Below are positions 49,576 through 61,165 of a stretch of 64,000 nucleotides of DNA, one piece after another. Position 1 is the stretch's first letter; the number at the start of each line of letters is the position of its first letter. The stretch lies in NCBI RefSeq assembly GCF_045037415.1, contig NZ_CP173438.1; one strand, 5' to 3'. The notes below the pieces were generated by a model. It ran no database searches. It was not told the DNA's origin and saw only the letters and a list, made by a program, of their open reading frames with translations. Source of the DNA: Escherichia coli. GTDB lineage: Bacteria > Pseudomonadota > Gammaproteobacteria > Enterobacterales > Enterobacteriaceae. The position numbers were made by a program, and so were the translations under genes.

Positions 49576-50381
49576 TGGAACGCTACGAATCTCTGTTTGC
49601 CCAGTTGAAGGAGCGCAAAGAAGGCGCATTCGTTCCTTTCGTCACCCTCGGTGATCCGGGCATTGAGCAGTCGCTGAAAATTATCGATACGCTAATTGAA
49701 GCCGGTGCTGACGCGCTGGAGTTAGGCATCCCCTTCTCCGACCCACTGGCGGATGGCCCGACGATTCAAAACGCCACACTGCGTGCCTTTGCGGCGGGTG
49801 TGACCCCGGCGCAGTGCTTTGAGATGCTGGCACTGATTCGTCAAAAACATCCGACCATTCCTGTTGGCCTGCTGATGTACGCCAACCTGGTGTTTAACAA
49901 AGGCATTGATGAGTTTTACGCCCAGTGCGAGAAAGTCGGCGTCGATTCGGTGCTGGTTGCCGATGTGCCAGTTGAAGAGTCCGCGCCCTTCCGCCAGGCC
50001 GCGTTGCGTCATAATGTCGCACCTATCTTTATTTGCCCGCCGAATGCCGACGATGATTTGCTGCGCCAGATAGCCTCCTACGGTCGTGGATACACCTATT
50101 TATTGTCACGTGCGGGCGTGACCGGCGCAGAAAACCGCGCCGCGTTACCCCTCAATCATCTGGTTGCGAAGCTGAAAGAGTACAACGCTGCACCTCCATT
50201 GCAGGGATTTGGTATTTCCGCCCCTGATCAGGTAAAAGCAGCGATTGATGCAGGAGCTGCGGGCGCGATTTCTGGTTCGGCCATCGTTAAAATCATCGAG
50301 CAACATATTAATGAGCCAGAGAAAATGCTGGCGGCACTGAAAGCTTTTGTACAACCGATGAAAGCCACTACACGACGTTAA
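49575..50381 (+). CDS. trpA: Tryptophan synthase alpha chain
   Basis: 268 aa; start overlaps the trpB stop. Confidence 0.95.
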
Positions 50382-50390
50382 TTTGAGACA

Positions 50391-50416
50391 AACCGCCAGA
50401 AAACATCTGGCGGTTT
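50391..50416 (+). terminator. trp operon terminator (trp t)
   Basis: Hairpin aaccgccaga-aaacat-ctggcggttt immediately after the trpA stop. Confidence 0.85.
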
Positions 50417-50431
50417 ATTGATGGTAAAAAA

Positions 50432-50569
50432 TTAGAAGCGGTAACCTGCAGAGAACATAAATACCCACGGGTCAAGGCGTACGTTGTCAGAATAACGCCC
50501 TGCAGGCAGCACTGCGCCGTTGGATTTATATTTCACTTCGGTATCGATATCCATGTACCAGACCGACAT
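50432..50569 (-). pseudogene. ompW: ompW 3'-terminal fragment (last 45 codons, ...VRLDPWVFMFSAGYRF), candidate prophage attachment junction
   Basis: Translation ends with the characteristic OmpW C-terminus; the frame is closed by a stop immediately upstream of codon MSVW; the 5' part of the gene is absent from the window. Confidence 0.75.
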
Positions 50570-50756
50570 GTTTTAAAAAATGCAATAAGACATTGTATCT
50601 GAAAGAAAAAACAGGATTTGAGGCGCTTTTTTATACCGTTTTTCCGTGTTTTTAACTGCCTGATTTTATTGAAATCTTTTTTAGTTTTGCAGAAAGGATT
50701 TTTTGCTCGATCGCTTTAATTTTATACATTCCTGATAACGGAAATTTTTTTGCCCG

Positions 50757-50786
50757 TTGACAGTTTTTGTTCTCCGGGGCTATATT
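50757..50786 (+). promoter_or_regulatory. Candidate sigma70 promoter (TTGACA, 18-bp spacer, TATATT) upstream of the Rha gene
   Basis: Consensus-like hexamers read in the sequence; function inferred. Confidence 0.3.
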
Positions 50787-51013
50787 CCTCACACAACCGC
50801 AAAATCGGTTGTCGGGATTGGCGTCTCGGATAACATCACAACGCATAGCCGCGTTTGCGGTTTTTTTTGCGTTAAGCATTGCCACATTCGCATTATGGTG
50901 GGGCGTGCAGGGGCGGAGAAATCCGCGCCGGGTTTTGTGATGACCGGTTACGCCAACCCTGTACGTCTCACCACCTCCCTGATTGGCGTCAGAGGTGGTG
51001 ATCATCCAATTAA

Positions 51014-51586
51014 TTGGAGTCATCACATATGAATACAGCTATAACTTTTTCTAACGAGTCACCAAAAGTCTTTTTCAAAGATGGTCGCCTGGTTACCACC
51101 TCTCAAGCTGTTGCCGACTACTTCGATAAACAACATAAACACGTTTTAGCTAAGATTGACACACTCGACTGCTCTCCCGAATTTACATCAGCCAACTTTT
51201 CGGCCGATGTTCAGACTGTCGAAATTGGCAACGGCGCAGAACGTGAATCACGATGCTACCTGATCACAAAAGACGGCTTCATGTTCCTCGTAATGGGATT
51301 TACTGGCAAAAAAGCAGCCAGACTAAAAGAAGCTTACATTGAAAAATTTAACGCAATGGAAGAAGAACTCCACAAACGTCCTCCTGCAGCACAAAACTCC
51401 CCCGCCCCAAATAATGGATGCGCATTACTGATCCACTTCGATAAACACGGTCAGGTCGAGTTCACAGAAAAAGTCCCCGCCGATGCGATGGTATGCACGC
51501 TGGAACGGTTTAAATTTTATCTGGAGCAACATGGGTGGATCGTTGCCCGTAAAGAACAATTGGTGGAAAGGTTGATGCGGTTTTAA
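51014..51586 (+). CDS. Phage regulatory protein, Rha family (190 aa)
   Basis: N-terminal Rha-type motif (VTTSQAVADYFDKQHKHVLAKIDTL; LVMGFTGKKAARLKEAYIEKFNAME). Confidence 0.7.
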   Translation: MESSHMNTAITFSNESPKVFFKDGRLVTTSQAVADYFDKQHKHVLAKIDTLDCSPEFTSANFSADVQTVEIGNGAERESRCYLITKDGFMFLVMGFTGKKAARLKEAYIEKFNAMEEELHKRPPAAQNSPAPNNGCALLIHFDKHGQVEFTEKVPADAMVCTLERFKFYLEQHGWIVARKEQLVERLMRF

Positions 51587-51593
51587 TGAATGC

Positions 51594-51626
51594 AAAACCC
51601 CGGATGATCACCGGGGTTAATTTTAT
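51594..51626 (+). terminator. Rho-independent terminator downstream of the Rha gene
   Basis: Hairpin aaaaccccgg-atgatca-ccggggtt followed by AATTTTA. Confidence 0.6.
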
Positions 51627-51947
51627 CGAGCGTGATTGCCGCTAATCGCCATCGCTCTGATTGAGCGTAAATCATTCAGGTTATTCAGTTCTTCCTTCTG
51701 CTCTCGCTGACGTCAATAAATCCCATCATTGCGATCAACCTCATCCTTAACCATTGATGCGAGCAGTTCTTCCAGTTTCTGCGCTGACAGCTTTACCTGG
51801 TGATCTTCAGCATCTTCCCGGGCTATTGTGGTTCGCGCAGTGGCTGATTTTGCTGACATCACCACAGGGGGCAGACGGACCATTGAACCATGGCCTCCGG
51901 AACAAATAAGGGCAAAAATAACAACCACTATCGAAAGCTCACAAACT

Positions 51948-52085
51948 AACCGCAGCACGTTCCTGCATACGACGTGTCTGCGGCATAATCCCAATGATTA
52001 CTCCCTGACAGGATTTGCAGGCCACTCAATATCAGGTGCAGTTGATGTATCAACACGATTCAACAATACCCGATATTTATTCCAT
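51948..52085. repeat. Direct repeat copy 1 (about 140 bp): tfa 3' end plus its terminator hairpin
   Basis: Roughly 85-90 percent identical by eye to 52998-53135 (aaccgcagcacgt...ggcataatcccaatgattactccctgacag...ggccactcaatatcaggtgcagttgatgtatcaacacg). Confidence 0.8.
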
Positions 52086-52267
52086 GCCTCCAGCAACGAT
52101 CTTTCTTCCTCCGTTGCGATTTCCAGATCTACAGCATCCTGCAGTGGCGCAATATACTCACTGAATTCCTGGATGTAGAACTGTGTGGTGACGGTCTTCC
52201 AGCCATTCGGCTCCTGCTGTATCGAAGCATACCAGGCTATTTCAATATCGCTATGCTGCGGCAGCAT
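51998..52267 (-). pseudogene. Tail fibre assembly protein (Tfa) C-terminal fragment, 89 codons
   Basis: C-terminus ...[36 protein letters not shown] resembles the intact Tfa at 54952-55479; the N-terminal half is missing. Confidence 0.65.
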
Positions 52268-52323
52268 TTAACCCCTTGTAATTCATCGCCATAATTGATT
52301 TAATTCACAAATAAAACTATAAC

Positions 52324-52992
52324 ATGGTGAAATCAATGAAAAAAAACACAGATGATGGGGCTAAAATTTACACACCACTTACCCTAAAGCTTTATGACTG
52401 GTGGGTTTTGGGAGTATCAAATCGGCTTGCATGGGGATGTCCTACAAAGGAACACCTTCTTCCACACTTTCTGGAACATGTAGGTAACAACCATCTGGAT
52501 ATTGGTGTTGGAACTGGGTTTTACCTTACTCACGTACCTGAGAGTAGTCTGATATCTTTAATGGATTTGAACGAAGCTAGCCTGAACGCGGCATCTACAA
52601 GGGCTGGGGAATCAAAAATTAAACATAAAATTAGCCATGATGTTTTTGAACCTTATCCCGCGGCGTTACATGGTCAATTTGATTCCATTTCCATGTTTTA
52701 CCTTCTTCACTGCCTGCCTGGAAATATATCTACAAAAAGCTGTGTAATACGCAATGCGGCGCAGGCCTTAACTGACGATGGAACTCTATACGGAGCCACA
52801 ATTCTTGGCGATGGAGTTGTGCACAATAGCTTCGGTCAAAAACTGATGCGCATTTACAATCAGAAAGGCATCTTTTCAAACACAAAAGATTCCGAAGAAG
52901 GCTTAACACATATACTCTCAGAGCATTTCGAGAATGTTAAAACCAAGGTTCAAGGTACTGTAGTAATGTTTTCCGCTTCAGGGAAAAAATAG
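52324..52992 (+). CDS. Class I SAM-dependent methyltransferase (222 aa), prophage moron
   Basis: Motif I LDIGVGTGFY; AT-rich coding sequence; flanked by the diverged tfa 3' repeats. Confidence 0.7.
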   Translation: MVKSMKKNTDDGAKIYTPLTLKLYDWWVLGVSNRLAWGCPTKEHLLPHFLEHVGNNHLDIGVGTGFYLTHVPESSLISLMDLNEASLNAASTRAGESKIKHKISHDVFEPYPAALHGQFDSISMFYLLHCLPGNISTKSCVIRNAAQALTDDGTLYGATILGDGVVHNSFGQKLMRIYNQKGIFSNTKDSEEGLTHILSEHFENVKTKVQGTVVMFSASGKK

Positions 52993-52997
52993 CATCC

Positions 52998-53135
52998 AAC
53001 CGCAGCACGTTCTTGCTTAAGACGTGCTGCGGCATAATCCCAATGATTACTCCCTGACAGGGTTCGTAGGCCACTCAATATCAGGTGCAGTTGATGTATC
53101 AACACGGTTCAGTAACACCCGATACTTTTTCTAGG
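52998..53135. repeat. Direct repeat copy 2: tfa 3' remnant plus hairpin (ccgcagcacgt...acgtgctgcgg)
   Basis: Paralogous to 51948-52085; the hairpin lies immediately after the methyltransferase stop. Confidence 0.8.
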
Positions 53136-53139
53136 CTTC

Positions 53140-53373
53140 CACCACCAGCACGACAAGATGCCGCATACAGTGAACCAGTCAGTCCAGTTTTCAGACAACC
53201 AGTGCGTCACCTTTTTGAAGGCGCTTTAAAGCACGTTTTAATCCAGGTCGGCCTGTCCTTGTTCCGCTTAATTTATCTTCAAATATTTGTTCATATCCTG
53301 CACAAACAAGAGCGTTTCGTTGCAGATCTGTATTCTGGTCATTTGTTGATACCCTTACATAGCCAATCAGCAC
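53140..53373 (-). pseudogene. pin: DNA invertase Pin/Gin/Hin family, truncated and interrupted
   Basis: N-terminal serine recombinase signature (V)LIGYVRVSTNDQNTDLQRNAL...LKRLQKGDALVV, then in-frame stop, degenerate sequence and fusion to the tfa remnant about 75 codons in. Confidence 0.8.
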
Positions 53374-53427
53374 GCTGAATCTCCCGTCCAAAAGCACAAA
53401 TCATGCCATGCAGGCCAGAAACCGCCA

Positions 53428-53453
53428 TTATCTAAAACCTCGGTTTACGAGAA
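53428..53453. repeat. Invertase crossover site (pix/gix-like, TTATCTAAAACCTCGGTTTACGAGAA)
   Basis: 26-bp site matching the Gin/Pin crossover consensus, inverted relative to the site at 56509-56534. Confidence 0.85.
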
Positions 53454-54386
53454 CTCGGCACAAGCGGGGAGAAAATACCGTTACTCAGTACAGCGAATAC
53501 CTGGACTAATCGACAAACATTCAGCGGTGGCCTTTCTGGTGAACTATCCGGCAATGCTTCTACAGCTGCAAAATTAAAAACTGCCAGGAAAATAAGCAAT
53601 GTGGCTTTTGATGGTTCCTCCGATATCACATTAAAAGCAAGTCATGTTGGTGCGTTTGCCTTAGGGAAAACAGGAAGCACCGTTGCGAATGATAAAGCAG
53701 TTGGATGGAACTGGAGTAGCGGAGCCTATAACGCAACTATTAGTGGTGCATCAACGTTAATTATTCATTTTTATATGGGAGAAGGAAGTTGTCCTGCAGC
53801 TCAGTTTCGGATTAATTATAAAAATGGCGGTATTTTTTATCGTTCAGCCCGTGATGGTTATGGTTTTGAAGCCGACTGGTCCGAATTTTACACCACCACC
53901 AGAAAGCCTTCAGCAGGAGATGTTGGTGCACTGCCGTTATCTGGTGGTCAACTGAATGGTGCACTGGGTATCGGAACATCCAGTGCTCTTGGCGGTAATT
54001 CGATTGTATTGGGTGATAATGACACGGGCTTTAAACAAAATGGCGATGGTAATCTGGATGTTTATGCTAATAACGTCCATGTTATGCGCTTTGTCTCCGG
54101 AAGCATTCAAAGTAATAAAACCATAAATATTACAGGGCGTGTTAACCCCTCGGATTACGGTAACTTTGATTCCCGTTATGTGAAAGATGTTCGACTTGGT
54201 TCACAGCAATATTATGGAGTGAACAACTGGCAAACATGGAATTTCCAGTGCCCTTCAGGTCATGTATTGTCTGGTATTAATGTTCAGGATACAGGGTCTA
54301 ACTCTGCCGATAATATAGCGGGCGTTTATTACAGACCCGTTCAAAAGTATATAAATGGCACCTGGTATAATGTAGCGAGCGTTTAA
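53441..54386 (+). CDS. Silent alternative tail-fibre C-terminal cassette (receptor-binding domain), in frame from the crossover site
   Basis: Frame open from the crossover site ([61 protein letters not shown]...); shares ALGGNSIxLGDNDTGxKQxGDG and QKYIxGxWYNV motifs with the expressed Stf C-terminus; ORF track lists 53601..54386. Confidence 0.7.
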
Positions 54387-54387
54387 T

Positions 54388-54921
54388 ATGATGCACTTAA
54401 AGAACATAAAAGCGGGTAATGCTAAAACACTGGAACAGTATGAGTTAACAAAGAAACACGGAGTTATCTGGCTTTACTCTGAGGACGGAAAAAACTGGTA
54501 TGAGGAAGTGAAAAACTTTCAGCCAGACACCATAAAGATTGTTTACGATGAAAATAATATTATTGTTGCCATAACCAAAGATGCCTCCACACTTAACCCT
54601 GAAGGTTATAGCGTCGTTGAGATTCCTGATATTACCGCCAACCGGCGTGCTGACGACTCAGGTAAATGGATGTTTAAAGATGGCGCAGTCATTAAACGTG
54701 TATATACCGAAGAAGAGTTGCGCCTACAGACGGAAAACCAGAAAAAAATATTATTACAGCAGGCCAGAGAAAAAACGCAGTTCTGGCAAACACAGCTTAC
54801 TTTGGGGATTATCACTGATTCAGACAGACAGCAACTGATGAACTGGATGCGATACGTGCAACAGGTTGAGACAACTGATACCTCGGTTCTTCCTGTAACA
54901 TTCCCGGAACCACCAGAATAA
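54388..54921 (+). CDS. Tail fibre assembly protein Tfa (cognate to the silent cassette)
   Basis: 177 aa paralogous to the minus-strand Tfa (MxHLKNIxAGNxKT..EQYxLTKK.GVIWLY.EDGKNWY). Confidence 0.8.
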
Positions 54922-54922
54922 G

Positions 54923-54947
54923 AAAAGGCCCGTACGGGCCTTAATTT
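54923..54947. terminator. Bidirectional terminator at the centre of the invertible segment
   Basis: Hairpin aaaaggcccgtacgggcctt between the convergent tfa genes. Confidence 0.6.
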
Positions 54948-54951
54948 GTTG

Positions 54952-55479
54952 TTATTCTGGTTTCTGTGGCCATTCAGGCTTTGCAGTATCCACACGGCTG
55001 ACCATAACGCTGTAGCGTTCCCATGATTCCAGTCGTGTGCGTTCCTCATCAGTTGCCATATTCAGTCTGACAGCACGTTCCAGCGGTTGAATCACAGACT
55101 CCGCTTCGGAAAGCAAAGCGGCTTTTTGTAACTCTGCCTGCTGTTGCAGTTCCTGTTTTGTATATTCCCGCTTTACTACTTTACCATCCAGAAACTTCCA
55201 GTTTCCCGAGATATCGGCGCGACGGTTGGCTGTTATATTCGGTAACTCAACAACACTTAACCCGTCAGGGTTAAGTGTTGATACGTCTTTCTCAATACAA
55301 CGAATAATCCCCTTCTGGTCATAAGCTATTTTTAAAGTATCATCCTGAAAGTTTTTTAATTCGTCATACCAGTTTTTACCGTCTTCTGTATATAGCCAGA
55401 TAACGCCAGCTTTTTTCGTAAGCTGATACTGCTCAATGGTTTTGGGGTTTCCGGCGGTAATATTTTTCAGATGTTGCAT
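54952..55479 (-). CDS. Tail fibre assembly protein Tfa (expressed orientation)
   Basis: 175-aa ORF directly downstream of stf. Confidence 0.85.
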
Positions 55480-55494
55480 ATATTCTCCTGATGG

Positions 55495-58401
55495 CTATGC
55501 CTGTTCAACGTTATACCAGTTACCAGAAATGTATTTTTGTAGTGGTCGTGACACCATCCAGTCATCTCCATCAACCTCACCAATAATTTGCAATCCTGTT
55601 GTCACATGACCATTACCTGGTTCGCAAAGTCCTCCGCGATATAATGTGTCAGAACGTCTGCCTCCCAGACGCACATTTCTGATAAAAGAACTATTCAGGT
55701 AATCATTTAAGTTTGACCCCCAGCACCCACCAAATATATTTCCATCGGTGTTATAACGGACGCCACCCGCAATAAGAGCACCCGGTGAAATAAAGGATTT
55801 ATCGTTCGGGTTAAACTGCCATAAAGCATCATTACCGCCATCGCCACGCATATGAATACATGGAACCGGAAATCCATACTGTTCTGTCAGTAAATACCCA
55901 AAGCTGACCGCGCCGGGATAGCCCTGTCCATTGCGAATGGACAAGCCCTTAACTATCGGCACGTAAAGACCACCAGGAGTGGGATTCCAGGCAAACTGCG
56001 TCTGAACAAAAGGCGCGGTGGCATTATTCAACTGGTCTGCAAATGCGCCACTTCCATCAGGAATTATTCCCTGATGAATATATGCAACCCGCTTATAAAA
56101 ATCAGCAGATGCGGGTTGAAGCCCAAATGCCAGTTGTCCATTTGAATAGAATAAAAGGACACCGTCGCCGCCCTGTTTAATACCAGTGTCGTTATCTCCG
56201 AGAGTAATGGAATTACCGCCCAGTGCGTTATCTGTACCAAGCGCCAGCCCACCATCAATTTTGGCCCCGTGGCTGACAGATATAGCACCTGTTCTCAGAT
56301 TTATAGCGAATGGCCTTAATGGGCCGATATCACCGTTTTCGCCTTGTCCTTCAGCCGTCGGAATGAAATGAAGAAAATCTTCTGAACGACGGAAAATAAG
56401 ACCGAAGGCATCATTGAAAATTCGCAGCGCATTCACCGTGCCAATTTTCAGTTCTCCGGTCATTTTATCGCCGGAACGCTGAACGGCGTTACCAGCCTTG
56501 TTTACCGTTTCCTGTAAACCGAGGTATTCGATAACGGCGGCAACGGTCGATTTCGCAAGAATATCCCGCCCAACTTTTGTCAGGGTTGCCAGACTGGCAA
56601 CATCATTCCCCGTAAAATACGGAAACCTGTCTGCCGCAGTAGCAAGCCCGGCCAGCGCCGTCAGGGTGGCATCTTTCGGTTGCTTACCCGCAAGCGCGCT
56701 AGTCATGGTGGTCGCAAAATTCGGGTCGTTGCCCAACGCCGCAGCCAGCTCGTTCAGCGTATTCAGTGCGTCAGGCGACGAGTCCACGAGGGCAGCGATC
56801 GCAGCCATAACATAAGCCGTGCTTGCGATTTGGGTATTATTCGTTCCCTGTCGCGCAGTTGGTGTTGTTGGCGTTCCGGTCAGTGCAGGACTATTTAAGG
56901 GCGCTTTCTTGTTCGTTTCACCCATTACCGCCTTAACCGCTTTTGGCGTTGCCGCCAGTGACTCGGAAGTGCTGTTGGTCGCACTGCTGAGCTGTACTAT
57001 CCCCTTTTTCGTCGTGCTCGCATCCTCAAGCGCCACGGCGGATGCAATATCCTCTGCCCGTTTTGCCGCTGTCTCGGCGCGCGTTGCCGCGGATTCCGCC
57101 GTACTTTTGCTCTGAGCTGCCGCCGTCGCACTGCCAGCTGCCTCTGTCGCCTTCGTGGATGCCGTCGTGGCGCTGCCCTTTGCTGCTGACGCCTGTCTGG
57201 TCGCCTCATCTTTTGAAGCAGACGCAGATGATGCCGATGACGCCGCTGAACTGGCTGACGATGCGGCTGCCGCCTTAGAGGAAGCAGCATTGTCTGCTGA
57301 AGTCTTTGCATTTGTTTCAGAGGTTTTTGCTGCAGAAGCAGACCTCGCTGCTGCAGTGGCTTGCTCAGTGGCTTTGCCAGCCTTCGTTGTGGCTGTTGAA
57401 GCGGATGATGCGGCGCTTTCTGCCGATTTTCCGGCGGCGGTGGCACTGGCTGAGGCCTGCCCGGCACTTGTTGACGCGGCACTGGCAGATAATGCAGCCG
57501 CTGTTTTTGAACCTGCCGCAGCTGAGGCGCTCTGTCCCGCTGCTGTTTCAGAAGACTTAGCGTTCGTCTCGGACGTTTTTGCCGCCTTCGCGGAATTTCC
57601 TGCCGCCGTTGCCGAGGAAGCTGCACTACTGGCACTTGATGATGCATTCGTTTCTGAAGATTTCGCTGCCTCTTTTGAGGCCGCCGCACCCCGTGCCGAG
57701 GTGGCAGCTTCTGACGCCTTCGTGGTCGCTGTGGATGCAGAAGTGGCTGCCGATTTTTGTGATGCTGCGGCATTCGTTTCTGACGTTTTCGCGGCACTGG
57801 CGCTGGTAGCTGCCGCGCTTTTTGATGACTCTGCAGCAGCAGCACTTTTTGCTGCTTCACGGGCCTTTGTCGATGCCGTTCCTGCGCTGGAAGACGCTGA
57901 CTGAGCCGACGACGCGGCCTGTCCGGCTGACGTGCTGGCGGCACGTGATGAGGCTGCAGCATCGGTTGCATGAGTTGCCGCCTCGCTGGCTGATGCACTG
58001 GCATCGCTGGCTGATTTTTTCGCGGCTGCCGTATTCTGTGCAACCGCGGAGGCGTTACGTGACACCTCTTCTACCATCTGCTCAAAGCGGCGCAGTGCCT
58101 CCGGTCGTACATCATCCTCCGTCATGGCACCGAGAAAATCATTCAGCGTACCTGGTCTGGAACCTTCATAGACGGTAATGGTCCCGGCATGTGAAGGCGG
58201 AAAACCTTCAACCAGCAGGGTGACGCTGTACTGACCATGCTCAACATCCATGCTGTAACGTCCGGCTTCATCCGGATTTTCAGAGGCCACCGTGTTCACC
58301 ACCACCGTGCTGCTGGTTCGTCTGGCCTTCAGCACAATGGTGCAGTTCTGTACTGGTTTTCCTGTGCCATCTTTAAGCACGCCAGAAATTTTTACTGTCA
58401 T
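55495..58401 (-). CDS. stf: Side tail fibre protein Stf (968 aa): lambda-like constant N-terminal part fused at the crossover site to variable C-terminal cassette A
   Basis: N-terminus MTVKISGVLKDGTGKPVQNCTIVLKARR... recognised as lambda Stf-like; long Ala/Ser/Thr-rich repeat region; crossover site encodes IEYLGLQET. Confidence 0.9.
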   Translation of the reverse strand: MTVKISGVLKDGTGKPVQNCTIVLKARRTSSTVVVNTVASENPDEAGRYSMDVEHGQYSVTLLVEGFPPSHAGTITVYEGSRPGTLNDFLGAMTEDDVRPEALRRFEQMVEEVSRNASAVAQNTAAAKKSASDASASASEAATHATDAAASSRAASTSAGQAASSAQSASSSAGTASTKAREAAKSAAAAESSKSAAATSASAAKTSETNAAASQKSAATSASTATTKASEAATSARGAAASKEAAKSSETNASSSASSAASSATAAGNSAKAAKTSETNAKSSETAAGQSASAAAGSKTAAALSASAASTSAGQASASATAAGKSAESAASSASTATTKAGKATEQATAAARSASAAKTSETNAKTSADNAASSKAAAASSASSAASSASSASASKDEATRQASAAKGSATTASTKATEAAGSATAAAQSKSTAESAATRAETAAKRAEDIASAVALEDASTTKKGIVQLSSATNSTSESLAATPKAVKAVMGETNKKAPLNSPALTGTPTTPTARQGTNNTQIASTAYVMAAIAALVDSSPDALNTLNELAAALGNDPNFATTMTSALAGKQPKDATLTALAGLATAADRFPYFTGNDVASLATLTKVGRDILAKSTVAAVIEYLGLQETVNKAGNAVQRSGDKMTGELKIGTVNALRIFNDAFGLIFRRSEDFLHFIPTAEGQGENGDIGPLRPFAINLRTGAISVSHGAKIDGGLALGTDNALGGNSITLGDNDTGIKQGGDGVLLFYSNGQLAFGLQPASADFYKRVAYIHQGIIPDGSGAFADQLNNATAPFVQTQFAWNPTPGGLYVPIVKGLSIRNGQGYPGAVSFGYLLTEQYGFPVPCIHMRGDGGNDALWQFNPNDKSFISPGALIAGGVRYNTDGNIFGGCWGSNLNDYLNSSFIRNVRLGGRRSDTLYRGGLCEPGNGHVTTGLQIIGEVDGDDWMVSRPLQKYISGNWYNVEQA
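56509..56534. repeat. Invertase crossover site inside stf (TTCCTGTAAACCGAGGTATTCGATAA)
   Basis: Reverse complement matches the site at 53428-53453 at 22 of 26 positions; Gin/Pin consensus. Confidence 0.85.
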
Positions 58402-58553
58402 ACTTTTCCACCAATAAAAAAAGCCCGCAGCAGTGACGCCACGGGCTTCAGGACAGTGTAACTTTACGTTTCCTCAAACGCAGTTCACCCCATAAGGTGG
58501 ATGAACCTGCGTATCATAACAATATTTACAGAAGATAAATCGGCGTCTGTTGT

Positions 58554-58775
58554 CAGAAACGGTATCCGATACCAACAATAAATGCATCCGTTCGCCAGTC
58601 GCCACTACCGGAACCTTCATAAGCAAGGTCAATGGTCACGGATTCGGTCGGGTTAAACTGCACGCCAGCCCCCCACGCCAGAGACGTGTTGCTGTGGCGA
58701 CCGTCATCACTTCCGGTCAGCACATCGTGCGTTTTCCCCTTGTTGTCAGTTACGCGGAGATAATCCCCGGAGAAA
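58554..58775 (-). pseudogene. lom: lom 3' fragment (Lom/Ail/OmpX-family outer membrane protein, C-terminal part SGDYLRVTDNKGKTHD...GYRF)
   Basis: Translation recognised as the lambda Lom C-terminus; separated from its N-terminal part by the IS element. Confidence 0.85.
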
Positions 58776-58862: not shown

Positions 58863-59612
58863 TCACTGATCTCCTTCGGTCAACGGAGATTGTATTTTCC
58901 GCATTGATTCTCCTTTAAGTTCGATCTTGATACTGCCATGAACCAGTCGATCTAGGATGGCATCCGCATGTGTGGAGTCTCCGATCATTTTGTACCAGTT
59001 TTCCACCGGCAACTGGCTCACTACGATGATTGAGCCTCGTTGGTACATCAGATCCACTATTTCCAGCAGGTCGCTACGCTGTTCTGATGAGAGAGGTTCC
59101 AGCCCCCAGTCATCCAGAAGCAGCAGATCGCTATTATTCAGCCTGGTCAAAAGTTTGCTGTATCTTCCATCAGCATGCCCCTGATAGCACTGTTCCATCA
59201 GCGCTTTAAGGCGATAATAGTAGACCTTGTATCCCTGTCGGCAGGCATTATGACCAAGTGCACATGCCAGGAACGTTTTACCGCTGCCGGTGGCCCCGGT
59301 CAGTAAAATATTTTGTTTCAGGGTTAACCAGTTTCCCTGACTGAGTGAACGGATGAGGGCCCTGTCCAGCCCTCTATTGTTACGATAATCCAGCTTTGAT
59401 AACTCAGCATTAAGTCTGAACCGTGCATGTTTGATCAGACGCTCTGCCTTCCTGTTTTCACGGCAGGTTAGTTCTTCTGCTGTCAGTAATGACAGGCGTT
59501 CTTCGAAGCCCAGCTCCTGGTATGTGCCCGGTTGAGCAAGTTGCTTTTTAAGCGCATCACGGAAGCCGGTGAGTTTAAGTGCGGTCAGTTGTTCGTAAAG
59601 ATGATTCATCAT
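58863..59612 (-). CDS. istB: IS21-family helper protein IstB (AAA+ ATPase)
   Basis: Walker A GATGSGKTF, Walker B LLLDDWG; 249 aa. Confidence 0.85.
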   Translation of the reverse strand: MMNHLYEQLTALKLTGFRDALKKQLAQPGTYQELGFEERLSLLTAEELTCRENRKAERLIKHARFRLNAELSKLDYRNNRGLDRALIRSLSQGNWLTLKQNILLTGATGSGKTFLACALGHNACRQGYKVYYYRLKALMEQCYQGHADGRYSKLLTRLNNSDLLLLDDWGLEPLSSEQRSDLLEIVDLMYQRGSIIVVSQLPVENWYKMIGDSTHADAILDRLVHGSIKIELKGESMRKIQSPLTEGDQ

Positions 59613-59623
59613 TGGATCCCGTA

Positions 59624-61165
59624 TCAGTGGTAATACTCACTGCCGCGTACGTTTTCGTGTTCCATCGTGGATAACAGATCTGGTTTTGGATCCTGAACAG
59701 GTTGTTTATCCAGACCTTTTTCCAGGATCGATTTAATACCTGACAGACGCCATACCTTTGTTTTCAGAGCTCTTGCACATGCTGCATTAAGTCTGGCTTT
59801 ACTGTATTTTTTATGAAGGTTCAGGAGTCCAAGGCAGAAGCGATAGCTTTGTTCCGGATGTGGACGAGAGTTCAGTATATGAAGCACATAACTATGAGTT
59901 TCACTGCCTATGTGCCCCGCCCATTCCAGAAGACGCTCTGGCGTCCAGGTGGCATGCTGTCGATGAGCTTCAGGCATGTGCTCGTTGCGGGTACTGTAGC
60001 CATAAGTACGCTTGCGCGGGTGCACAGCAACCTCCTGCCCCTGATTGAAGAGTCTTACCAGTTCTCCGGAGATCCATGCTTCCAGTTGCTGGCCTAACAG
60101 CGAACATGGAACCGAGTAGTAATGTTTGTCGATTTCCACGTGGTAATCGGCATGAACTCTGACTTTCTTCACCAGGGTGTAACTGTAACTGGCTTCAGGA
60201 AGAGGCTTCAGTGCGGGTTTATCAAGCTGGATGAAGAGTTCTGCACGTGAATAACCCAACTTCTGCATTATTTTGTTATTCAGTCTTTCCAGCAACTCCC
60301 GAATGCGCTGATTAAGCGATGCAAGGCTGTAGAAGATCTCATGCCTGATTCGGGCCATGATCCAGCGTTCAACAACCTGAACGCCAACTTCAGCTTTGGC
60401 TTTATCTTTCGGTTTACGTGGCCGCGCAGGCAAAACTGCGACATTATAATGCTCAAGCATCTGCTGGTAGGTAGGGTTAACGTCAGGATCATACTTACAT
60501 GCCCTGGATGTGGCGCTTTTCAGATTGTCCGGAACAACAAGTTCAGGAACGCCACCCAACCACTGGAAGCAGCGAACATGACTCATCACCCAGTCTTCAA
60601 GCTGCTGAGACCAGGTGGCCTCTGCCCATGTGTAACTTGATGCCCCGAGAACAGCTACGATGACCTGAGCAGTTCTTATTTCTCCGGTCTCAGGGTCGGT
60701 AACGCCAACGGTAGGTCCACAGTAATCAACGAAAAGTTTTTCGCCAGCTTTATGTACCTGACGCATTGATGGTGAAGTGGTTTTGAGCCATTCACGGTAC
60801 ATCCGGCAGTAATGGTTATAGCTGTAAAAACCGCCTGGATTACGCTCACAGTATTCTTCCCAGAGTAGCTGCAGCGTCACGCATTTATTACGCAGTTCCC
60901 GGTGTACTGTAGCCCAGTCAGGCAGAGAGTGCTTCTTCATCTTAACCTGGGTCTGAAGGAACGCATGTTTTAGTTTTGTATCATCCCATCCTGTAGGTAA
61001 GGGCCACTGCTTTATGCCAAGTTGAGCCGCCCGATTAGCATATCTGGATACAACGGAAGGGGAGATTGCAAGACTACGACCAATTTGTCGATGGCTGAGT
61101 CCAACACCGTATTTAAGCCTAAGAATTTCTTTAAGTTTTCTCATAGAAATTGGAACTGTTGGCAT
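59624..61165 (-). CDS. istA: IS21-family transposase IstA
   Basis: N-terminal helix-turn-helix and DDE-type integrase core upstream of istB; the 513-aa ORF is longer than typical IstA, so the true start may be internal. Confidence 0.75.
   Translation of the reverse strand: MPTVPISMRKLKEILRLKYGVGLSHRQIGRSLAISPSVVSRYANRAAQLGIKQWPLPTGWDDTKLKHAFLQTQVKMKKHSLPDWATVHRELRNKCVTLQLLWEEYCERNPGGFYSYNHYCRMYREWLKTTSPSMRQVHKAGEKLFVDYCGPTVGVTDPETGEIRTAQVIVAVLGASSYTWAEATWSQQLEDWVMSHVRCFQWLGGVPELVVPDNLKSATSRACKYDPDVNPTYQQMLEHYNVAVLPARPRKPKDKAKAEVGVQVVERWIMARIRHEIFYSLASLNQRIRELLERLNNKIMQKLGYSRAELFIQLDKPALKPLPEASYSYTLVKKVRVHADYHVEIDKHYYSVPCSLLGQQLEAWISGELVRLFNQGQEVAVHPRKRTYGYSTRNEHMPEAHRQHATWTPERLLEWAGHIGSETHSYVLHILNSRPHPEQSYRFCLGLLNLHKKYSKARLNAACARALKTKVWRLSGIKSILEKGLDKQPVQDPKPDLLSTMEHENVRGSEYYH

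Follow-up and report, generated by a model that had tools for sequence, protein, structure and literature searches.

A methyltransferase gene lies near one end of a prophage in a 64,000-nt stretch of Escherichia coli DNA (NCBI RefSeq contig NZ_CP173438.1; this whole stretch is called the window below), between two remnants of tail-fibre-assembly (tfa) genes. The gene is ybcY, and it belongs to an already known, named family (ybcY / PHROG 2132) that occupies a known position. Taking the evidence together, we consider it likely that ybcY is a lambdoid moron distal to tfa, that its product is a small-molecule methyltransferase, and that it was resident here before the adjoining tail-fibre genes were swapped. 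The initial annotation of this DNA had presented the same gene as an unusual orphan, with a lean towards defence or modification of host DNA. As a search for a new defence or epigenetic system the lead is therefore closed: ybcY is a long-annotated y-gene. The gene and its immediate borders consist of the following features.

52324..52992, plus strand: ybcY, encoding a class I S-adenosylmethionine (SAM)-dependent methyltransferase; an open reading frame (ORF) of 222 aa, 99% identical in nucleotide sequence to K-12 ybcY (b0562)
52268..52335, plus strand: AT-rich promoter spacer of ybcY (about 27% GC), from a sequence match to the K-12 promoter and a consensus scan
51948..52095, no strand: left direct repeat of 148 nt (hairpin and tfa 3′ end), from a repeat search and alignment
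52998..53144, no strand: right direct repeat of 147 nt (hairpin and tfa 3′ end), from the same search and alignment
51998..52267, minus strand: tfaX-type fragment (tfaX′), an 89-codon ORF, from the ORF list and tblastn with the Tfa protein of E. coli GN04592
51950..51983, minus strand: hairpin after the tfaX′ stop codon (fold of -22 kcal/mol, z of -2.8; terminator-like match at 51967-51951)
53000..53032, no strand: hairpin common to the convergent ybcY and tfa remnant, 8 nt after the ybcY stop codon
53048..53144, minus strand: the last ~28-32 codons (97 bp) of a lambda-type tfa, 91% identical to Tfa residues 163-194 by tblastn

The identity of the gene is clear. Motif I (LDIGVGTG) stands at residues 58-65 of the 222-aa product, the protein matches phrog_2132 (E 4e-157; residues 5-222 against profile positions 1-218), and Pfam gives Methyltransf_12, 23, 25 and 11 with E-values from 6e-9 to 6e-5. 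ORF, motif and Pfam families thus agree with the class I SAM methyltransferase of the initial annotation. Its statement that the gene is AT-richer than its surroundings holds as well (41.1% GC against 50.0% in the whole window and 49.0% in the prophage part, with 26.8% in the 56-bp upstream spacer), but the contrast is modest and the tail-fibre neighbours themselves have 40-45% GC.

The window between 50400 and 55600 is a 100% match to E. coli sequence type 131 (ST131) genomes such as EC958, and RefSeq labels used here were taken from the identical EC958 sequence (offset 44399). RefSeq starts ybcY at ATG 52324. That codon is unlikely as the start because the -10 box of the promoter ends at 52323. 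ATG 52336, preceded by GGTGA, matches both the Met5 that is invariant in the family and the N-terminus of most homologues, which are 218 aa long. Judging from these alignments, the gene probably starts at ATG 52336 and encodes 218 aa. A message translated from ATG 52336 may have a very short leader.

The position of ybcY is an ordinary one. The gene is found in 3,831 of 5,426 complete E. coli genomes (71%), with up to 4 copies per genome, and most copies among the matches listed are annotated as intact methyltransferase genes. The order tfa, convergent ybcY, tfaX′ recurs in the K-12 prophage DLP12, in GN04592 and in the viable lambdoid phages 2G7b, PhiR26_1 and Turner. Viable phages carrying the ybcY unit at 98-99% identity are 2G7b, ev243, PhiR26_1, PhiR29, PhiR30 and PhiR49 (the PhiR series from ECOR strains), Turner and Kati. 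PhiR26_1 has J-lom-stf-tfa, then ybcY on the opposite strand, a tfa fragment, a hydrolase-like gene and ompT; in 2G7b the same outboard genes are followed by int. Direct tfa repeats of 132-157 nt surround ybcY in K-12, PhiR26_1 and Turner also. Lambda and HK629/630 have one tfa 3′ end to which both repeats align, and no match to ybcY was reported for them; lambda represents the state without the ybcY module. The gene is therefore not an orphan: it sits in its usual tfa-ybcY-tfaX′ place, and in related prophages and phages it is essentially an ordinary part of the tail module.

Comparison with the closest relatives shows what is particular to the window. K-12 DLP12 (ybcY b0562, tfaD, tfaX) shares with it 99% gene identity, gene order and orientation, and the promoter spacer, and has tfa repeats of 157 nt. 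In DLP12, however, ybcY is a frameshifted pseudogene (667 versus 669 bp) followed by appY-ompT, whereas in the window ybcY is intact, the right tfa is reduced to 97 bp fused to a remnant of the invertase gene pin, and DUF4376′-Rha-ash stand at the ompW junction. The lambdoid phages (PHROG 2132) are 98-99% identical to the window over 52043-53144 (in Turner over 52043-53032), and there too the gene lies past stf-tfa, in the equivalent of the b region. Unlike the window, they have a full tfa (or, in Turner, a full invertase further away), and an alpha/beta-hydrolase gene, ompT and int outboard.

The term moron, which the initial annotation had already applied, fits this accessory gene: it lies on the opposite strand to the late operon, has lower GC and has its own predicted promoter. 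Morons of the lambda type (bor, lom and similar) were reportedly defined by Hendrix and colleagues. With these ybcY shares a predicted promoter and a hairpin of its own, deviant base composition and absence from lambda itself. It differs from them in being antisense to the late operon, and in lying between duplicated tfa ends instead of being cleanly inserted between genes.

The promoter is predicted in the AT-rich spacer, which contains TTGATT-17-TATAAC (52295-52323) and, as an alternative, TTAACC-16-CATAAT (52268-52295). For the K-12 ybcY/tfaX spacer a constitutive RpoD promoter has been listed, and the spacer was also flagged as H-NS bound (Shimada et al., PMC3946193). The TTGATT-17-TATAAC element in the window is identical to that K-12 RpoD promoter. 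By extension from K-12, ybcY would be transcribed here from its own sigma-70 promoter within an H-NS-bound spacer of 27% GC.

Structure and homology point to the type of enzyme. The AlphaFold2 model (mean pLDDT 90) has the seven-stranded class I Rossmann fold with an N-terminal two-helix cap. The SAM-site residues D59, G61, G63, G65, D81, H105, D106 and D120 are invariant across 36 homologues (GVGTG being residues 61-65). The family has 60 invariant columns, including the SAM-binding motifs, and the YLLHCLPG segment after strand 4 is invariant or nearly so; family members below E 1e-10 form 801 clusters at 50% identity. Apart from enterobacterial homologues, the highest-ranking AFDB50 matches are fungal proteins with 36-48% identity and template modelling (TM) scores of about 0.9. 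They include the Swiss-Prot entry 'Methyltransferase verB', a vrtF-named protein and a lichen 'putative O-methyltransferase'. VerB (A0A1V6NVX3) matches with a Foldseek E-value of 7.5e-26, TM scores of 0.90/0.87 and 36% identity; other fungal members reach 41-48%.

The VerB equivalent DovB was shown by heterologous expression to O-methylate an alpha-pyrone hydroxyl, and AurB, CtvB and AstB perform the same O-methylation in related pathways (PMC12312803). VerB/DovB, AurB, CtvB and AstB resemble YbcY in size (about 220-240 aa) and fold. The fungal genes, however, lie in polyketide-synthase clusters and their products act on pathway intermediates, whereas ybcY and its enterobacterial homologues are solitary. 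The substrate of YbcY must differ from those of the fungal enzymes, since no biosynthetic genes accompany ybcY or its enterobacterial homologues. From fold, conserved residues and homology, YbcY is probably an active class I SAM-dependent methyltransferase that acts alone on a small molecule, and most plausibly an O-methyltransferase. It would O-methylate an acidic enol or phenol-type metabolite or xenobiotic, and ybcY would then be a lysogenic-conversion or fitness gene.

Other classes of methyltransferase fit less well. NCBIfam searches gave only sub-threshold matches to CpaM, RquA and PmtA (13-18 bits against cut-offs of 162-390), and searches of PDB sequences and profiles gave only weak matches to JHAMT and UbiG. 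YbcY could be a membrane-lipid methyltransferase, that is, a phosphatidylethanolamine (PE) N-methyltransferase of the PmtA type or similar that remodels the lysogen envelope, comparable to the lom and ompT cargo. We regard this as quite improbable: identity is 15-17%, the NCBIfam score is 15.7 bits against a cut-off of 390, and the fungal polyketide O-methyltransferases are much closer (36-48%). Moreover, production of methylated PE or phosphatidylcholine is not known in E. coli, though about 70% of strains carry ybcY. Less probable still, and in our view very unlikely, is an enzyme that adjusts host translation by methylating tRNA or rRNA. Identity to such enzymes is 12-15% with scores no better than those of dozens of small-molecule enzymes, there is no RNA-binding extension, the NCBIfam RNA-methyltransferase models do not match, and the close homologues are natural-product tailoring enzymes.

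Prophage ends beside tail-fibre/invertase modules often hold defence cargo. YbcY is encoded at such a site and is a SAM methyltransferase by Pfam, and the initial annotation, taking mcrA beside pin in e14 as its model, had leaned towards an orphan DNA methyltransferase or a defence or anti-restriction component. This now seems extremely unlikely, the least probable of the alternatives. A regular-expression search found neither [DNS]PP[YFWH] nor PC[QE] in the product, and its 218-222 aa are filled by the catalytic core and the N-terminal helical cap, with no room for a target-recognition domain. The one PADLOC match (E 0.009) was rejected as not significant. No nuclease or partner is conserved in any context examined, and the neighbours in the window are tfa and pin fragments only. 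Small-molecule methyltransferases make up the great majority of structural and sequence neighbours, the closest characterised ones being small-molecule O-methyltransferases of the VerB/DovB class, and none is a DNA methyltransferase. The comparison with mcrA also fails at the level of the locus: the enzyme is not of a nucleic-acid type, and pin here would be part of a tail-fibre switch that arrived later (see below).

The distribution of the homologues is consistent with an enzyme that works alone. In Enterobacter, Salmonella and Yersinia, the homologues with 56-68% identity stand alone on the chromosome and share no neighbours, and those with 87-90% identity in Salmonella and Citrobacter are found in plasmid, insertion sequence (IS) or prophage-like contexts. 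The homologues in six genera showed no conserved neighbour, and no partner gene was found in any of the more than 10 contexts examined. In two contexts that are not related to each other, a Yersinia chromosome and an IS-flanked contig with a Salmonella-type homologue (loci L011, 9170-9361, and L021, 2328-3158), a CPBP/Rce1-like gene follows the ybcY homologue within about 0.5-0.8 kb; this may be a coincidence or a loose association.

It could also be argued that ybcY is a functionless passenger, kept by the recombination-prone tfa ends and by hitch-hiking with tail-fibre modules. The frameshift in the K-12 copy, the H-NS binding of its spacer (PMC3946193) and the parent-like behaviour of a K-12 ybcY mutant in the one assay found, on Hha toxicity, are in line with this. 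However, dN/dS is 0.11-0.21 against four homologues (from Citrobacter, Salmonella, Enterobacter and Klebsiella), the SAM-binding residues are invariant, the copies among the matches listed are mostly annotated as intact, and the family is also kept as a solitary chromosomal gene in other Enterobacterales. Such a passenger is unlikely, though less so than a lipid or nucleic-acid substrate. Metabolomics would be a sensible approach to a small-molecule methyltransferase that phages carry, that occurs in about 70% of E. coli genomes and whose sequence is under purifying selection.

A more specific role may be imagined, although we regard it as speculative and doubtful. YbcY could be a prophage-borne detoxifying or signal-quenching O-methyltransferase that gives lysogens chemical protection, with enol or phenol targets from competitors or from the host, for example antibiotics or signals of the alpha-pyrone or 4-hydroxy-quinolone type. 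Rv0560c is a mycobacterial methyltransferase of heterocyclic toxins, and a detoxifying YbcY would parallel it by analogy. If this were true, the 46-48% identity to fungal proteins would mean that a natural-product methyltransferase had crossed between kingdoms and entered the gene pool of phages. As an observation in its own right, the fungal matches (lichen, Fusarium, Penicillium, basidiomycetes) at 41-48% are as close as some gammaproteobacterial homologues, such as the Tatumella proteins at 43%. This closeness suggests, as far as sequence comparison goes, cross-kingdom transfer within the methyltransferase family.

The second part of our reading, that ybcY was resident before the tail-fibre swap, comes from its borders. 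The left and right repeats are identical in 131 of 148 aligned columns (88.5%) with one 1-bp indel, which is far above chance, and the initial description of roughly 140-bp direct repeats of tfa 3′ ends with hairpins is accurate (147 and 148 bp). So is its description of what each repeat closes. The left one ends the 89-codon ORF at 51998-52267 (minus strand), of which only the C-terminal ~63 residues are Tfa-like (81% to residues 132-194 of lambda-type Tfa by tblastn). The right one ends where pin homology starts, at about 53144. Between 52043 and 52267 the window is 99% identical to the tfaX fragments of phages PhiR26_1, 2G7b and Turner; 51948-52043, including the terminal 52000-52043 of the ORF, is a different tfa-end allele from that of the phage tfaX fragments. 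The cargo outboard of this left edge varies by relative: appY in K-12, hydrolase-ompT in the phages and DUF4376′-Rha-ash in the window.

Both repeats carry stable hairpins, with folds of -22 to -28 kcal/mol (z -2.8 to -5.2) on the tfa-sense strand. The left one, at 51950-51983, looks like a terminator for leftward transcription (the sense of the late operon), with a partial U tail. The one at 53000-53032 (-23.9 kcal/mol on the plus strand, -27.9 kcal/mol on the minus strand, z about -5.2) is likely a bidirectional terminator, as predicted from its folding.

Two groups of genomes are informative regarding the right side of ybcY, which needs two further features.

53145..53397, minus strand: pseudogene of pin (serine invertase), fused to the tfa remnant, from translations and tblastn with the phage Turner invertase
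53435..56527, no strand: invertible tail-fibre segment of 3.1 kb, from a pattern search and ORFs

First, GN04592 carries a prophage at the same ompW/trp site that is collinear with window positions 50430-53144 (98.3%) and 56933-58691 (97.7%). The DNA between these collinear parts has no pin; it encodes a full-length Tfa of 194 aa, next to ybcY, and another C-terminal half of stf. Because GN04592 is collinear on both sides and different between them, window 53145-56932 is a replacement segment. Second, the junction of truncated pin with the tfa 3′ end (53066-53448) is present at 96.6% identity without ybcY in prophage remnants of B2C and 74-2, adjacent to bioA/ybhB and beside a diguanylate cyclase gene. 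Since the window is GN04592-like up to 53144 and B2C/74-2-like from 53066, a crossover can be placed in the 79 bp of tfa 3′ homology at 53066-53144.

These data suggest the following course of events. The ybcY gene would already have been resident beside a full-length tfa in the ompW-site prophage, as it is in GN04592. In the ST131 lineage, an invertible tail-fibre module of the Mu/e14 type would have taken the place of most of tfa and of the distal half of stf; at the end of this incoming module, pin would already have been truncated and joined to a tfa 3′ remnant. Of the two crossovers, one would lie in the 79 bp of tfa 3′ homology (53066-53144) and one within stf, near 56933. The initial annotation had proposed that the cassette was acquired between tfa ends and that most of pin was deleted in the process. 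Its view of the tfa ends as recombination joints is borne out by the 79-bp crossover zone, but the order appears to be the reverse: GN04592, B2C and 74-2 point to the tail-fibre/invertase module as the incoming part, with pin already broken. In the comparison with related prophages that it proposed, GN04592 shows ybcY beside a full tfa; a pair of flanks free of the cassette was not seen. When the two outer flanks were joined into one query, 219 genomes had both of them, in each case over a span of 3.4 kb that includes the cassette.

In a wider sense, the last ~80-150 bp of tfa serve as portable homology for the swapping of tail-fibre (host-range) modules and distal cargo, and this locus is a worked example in which the remnants were left behind. 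The hairpin that trails tfa (window 51926-51983 and 52993-53032) also recurs with about 90% identity in the B2C and 74-2 remnants, where it lies between ybhB and the diguanylate cyclase cargo gene (loci L014, 3267-3323, and L016, 2181-2237). This hairpin seems to mark the edges of distal cargo modules and to move with them.

Several points weigh against the interpretation of ybcY as a resident lambdoid moron for a small-molecule methyltransferase. The direction of the tail-fibre swap is argued by parsimony from few genomes, with no rooted phylogeny. The plus-strand hairpin past ybcY has no U-tract, which leaves termination of ybcY there putative, and H-NS binding may keep the gene largely silent. 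Fungal homology at 36-48% fixes neither the substrate nor the acceptor atom, and no polyketide-synthase or other biosynthetic gene was found near ybcY or its enterobacterial homologues. Being a pseudogene in K-12, ybcY is dispensable in the laboratory. Finally, no functional study of ybcY was found in the literature on ybcY, on DLP12 plus methyltransferase, or in the source papers of phages 2G7b and PhiR.

The invertible switch is a neighbour of ybcY without a functional tie to it. The pin remnant retains ~83 N-terminal codons with two in-frame stops, and RefSeq labels it 'recombinase family protein, incomplete'. The segment is bounded by inverted crossover sites, AAACCTCGGTTTAC (53435-53448, plus strand) and ATACCTCGGTTTAC (56514-56527, minus strand). 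It contains an alternative stf C-terminus with tfa (53601-54921, plus strand) and the currently expressed tfa and stf C-terminus (54952 onward, minus strand). In strain R4, whose locus is otherwise identical, the segment is inverted (L024, 7449-10500) and the other stf C-terminus is fused to the fibre gene. In having two alternative stf C-termini with tfa genes between inverted crossover sites beside a pin gene, and in occurring in both orientations in related genomes, the segment resembles the tail-fibre switches of the Mu G segment, the P1 C segment and the e14 P region (Gin, Cin and Pin, respectively). The switch in the window differs from these in that its adjoining pin is a pseudogene. 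Because this pin is truncated and contains stops, the inversion must have been catalysed in trans by another invertase or be older than the decay of pin. The hairpin/tfa end was also considered as an invertase crossover site and was rejected, the crossover sites being the separate 14-bp inverted pair at 53435 and 56514.

The setting of the module is a typical prophage end. The trp operon ends at 50381, and an ompW 3′ fragment at 50432-50572 marks the prophage junction. Going inward from this junction are ash and Rha, a DUF4376 pseudogene, the tfa fragment, the methyltransferase ORF and the 97-bp tfa remnant, followed by the truncated pin, the invertible tail-fibre segment, a side tail fibre gene of 968 codons and lom, split by ISEc12. 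One more feature belongs to the outboard part.

51623..51901, minus strand: DUF4376 (tfa-like) pseudogene fragment, from the RefSeq annotation of the identical EC958 sequence; also in GN04592 and R4

Outboard of the ybcY module, the DUF4376′ fragment adds a third and older 3′ remnant of tail-fibre-assembly genes. Three such remnants hence stand in series at the prophage end: DUF4376′ at 51623-51901, tfaX′ at 51998-52267 and tfa′ at 53048-53144. The stack at 51623-53144 looks like a record of repeated module exchanges at one joint.

At the prophage junction itself there is a 1.75-kb difference from GN04592, which has yciG, yciF and yciE between trpA and the ompW fragment. The window is without them (50382-50431), and its trpA and ompW 3′ fragment are separated by about 50 bp. 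A 45-aa 'hypothetical protein', WP_001309429.1, is annotated at 52937-53074 (minus strand), over the ybcY 3′ end, the hairpin and the tfa remnant; it is probably an out-of-frame read-through of the remnants and not a gene. At the far side, the IS21-family element ISEc12 (58863-61165; istB 58863-59612, istA 59624-61165) lies inside the lom-like prophage gene, as it does in EC958.

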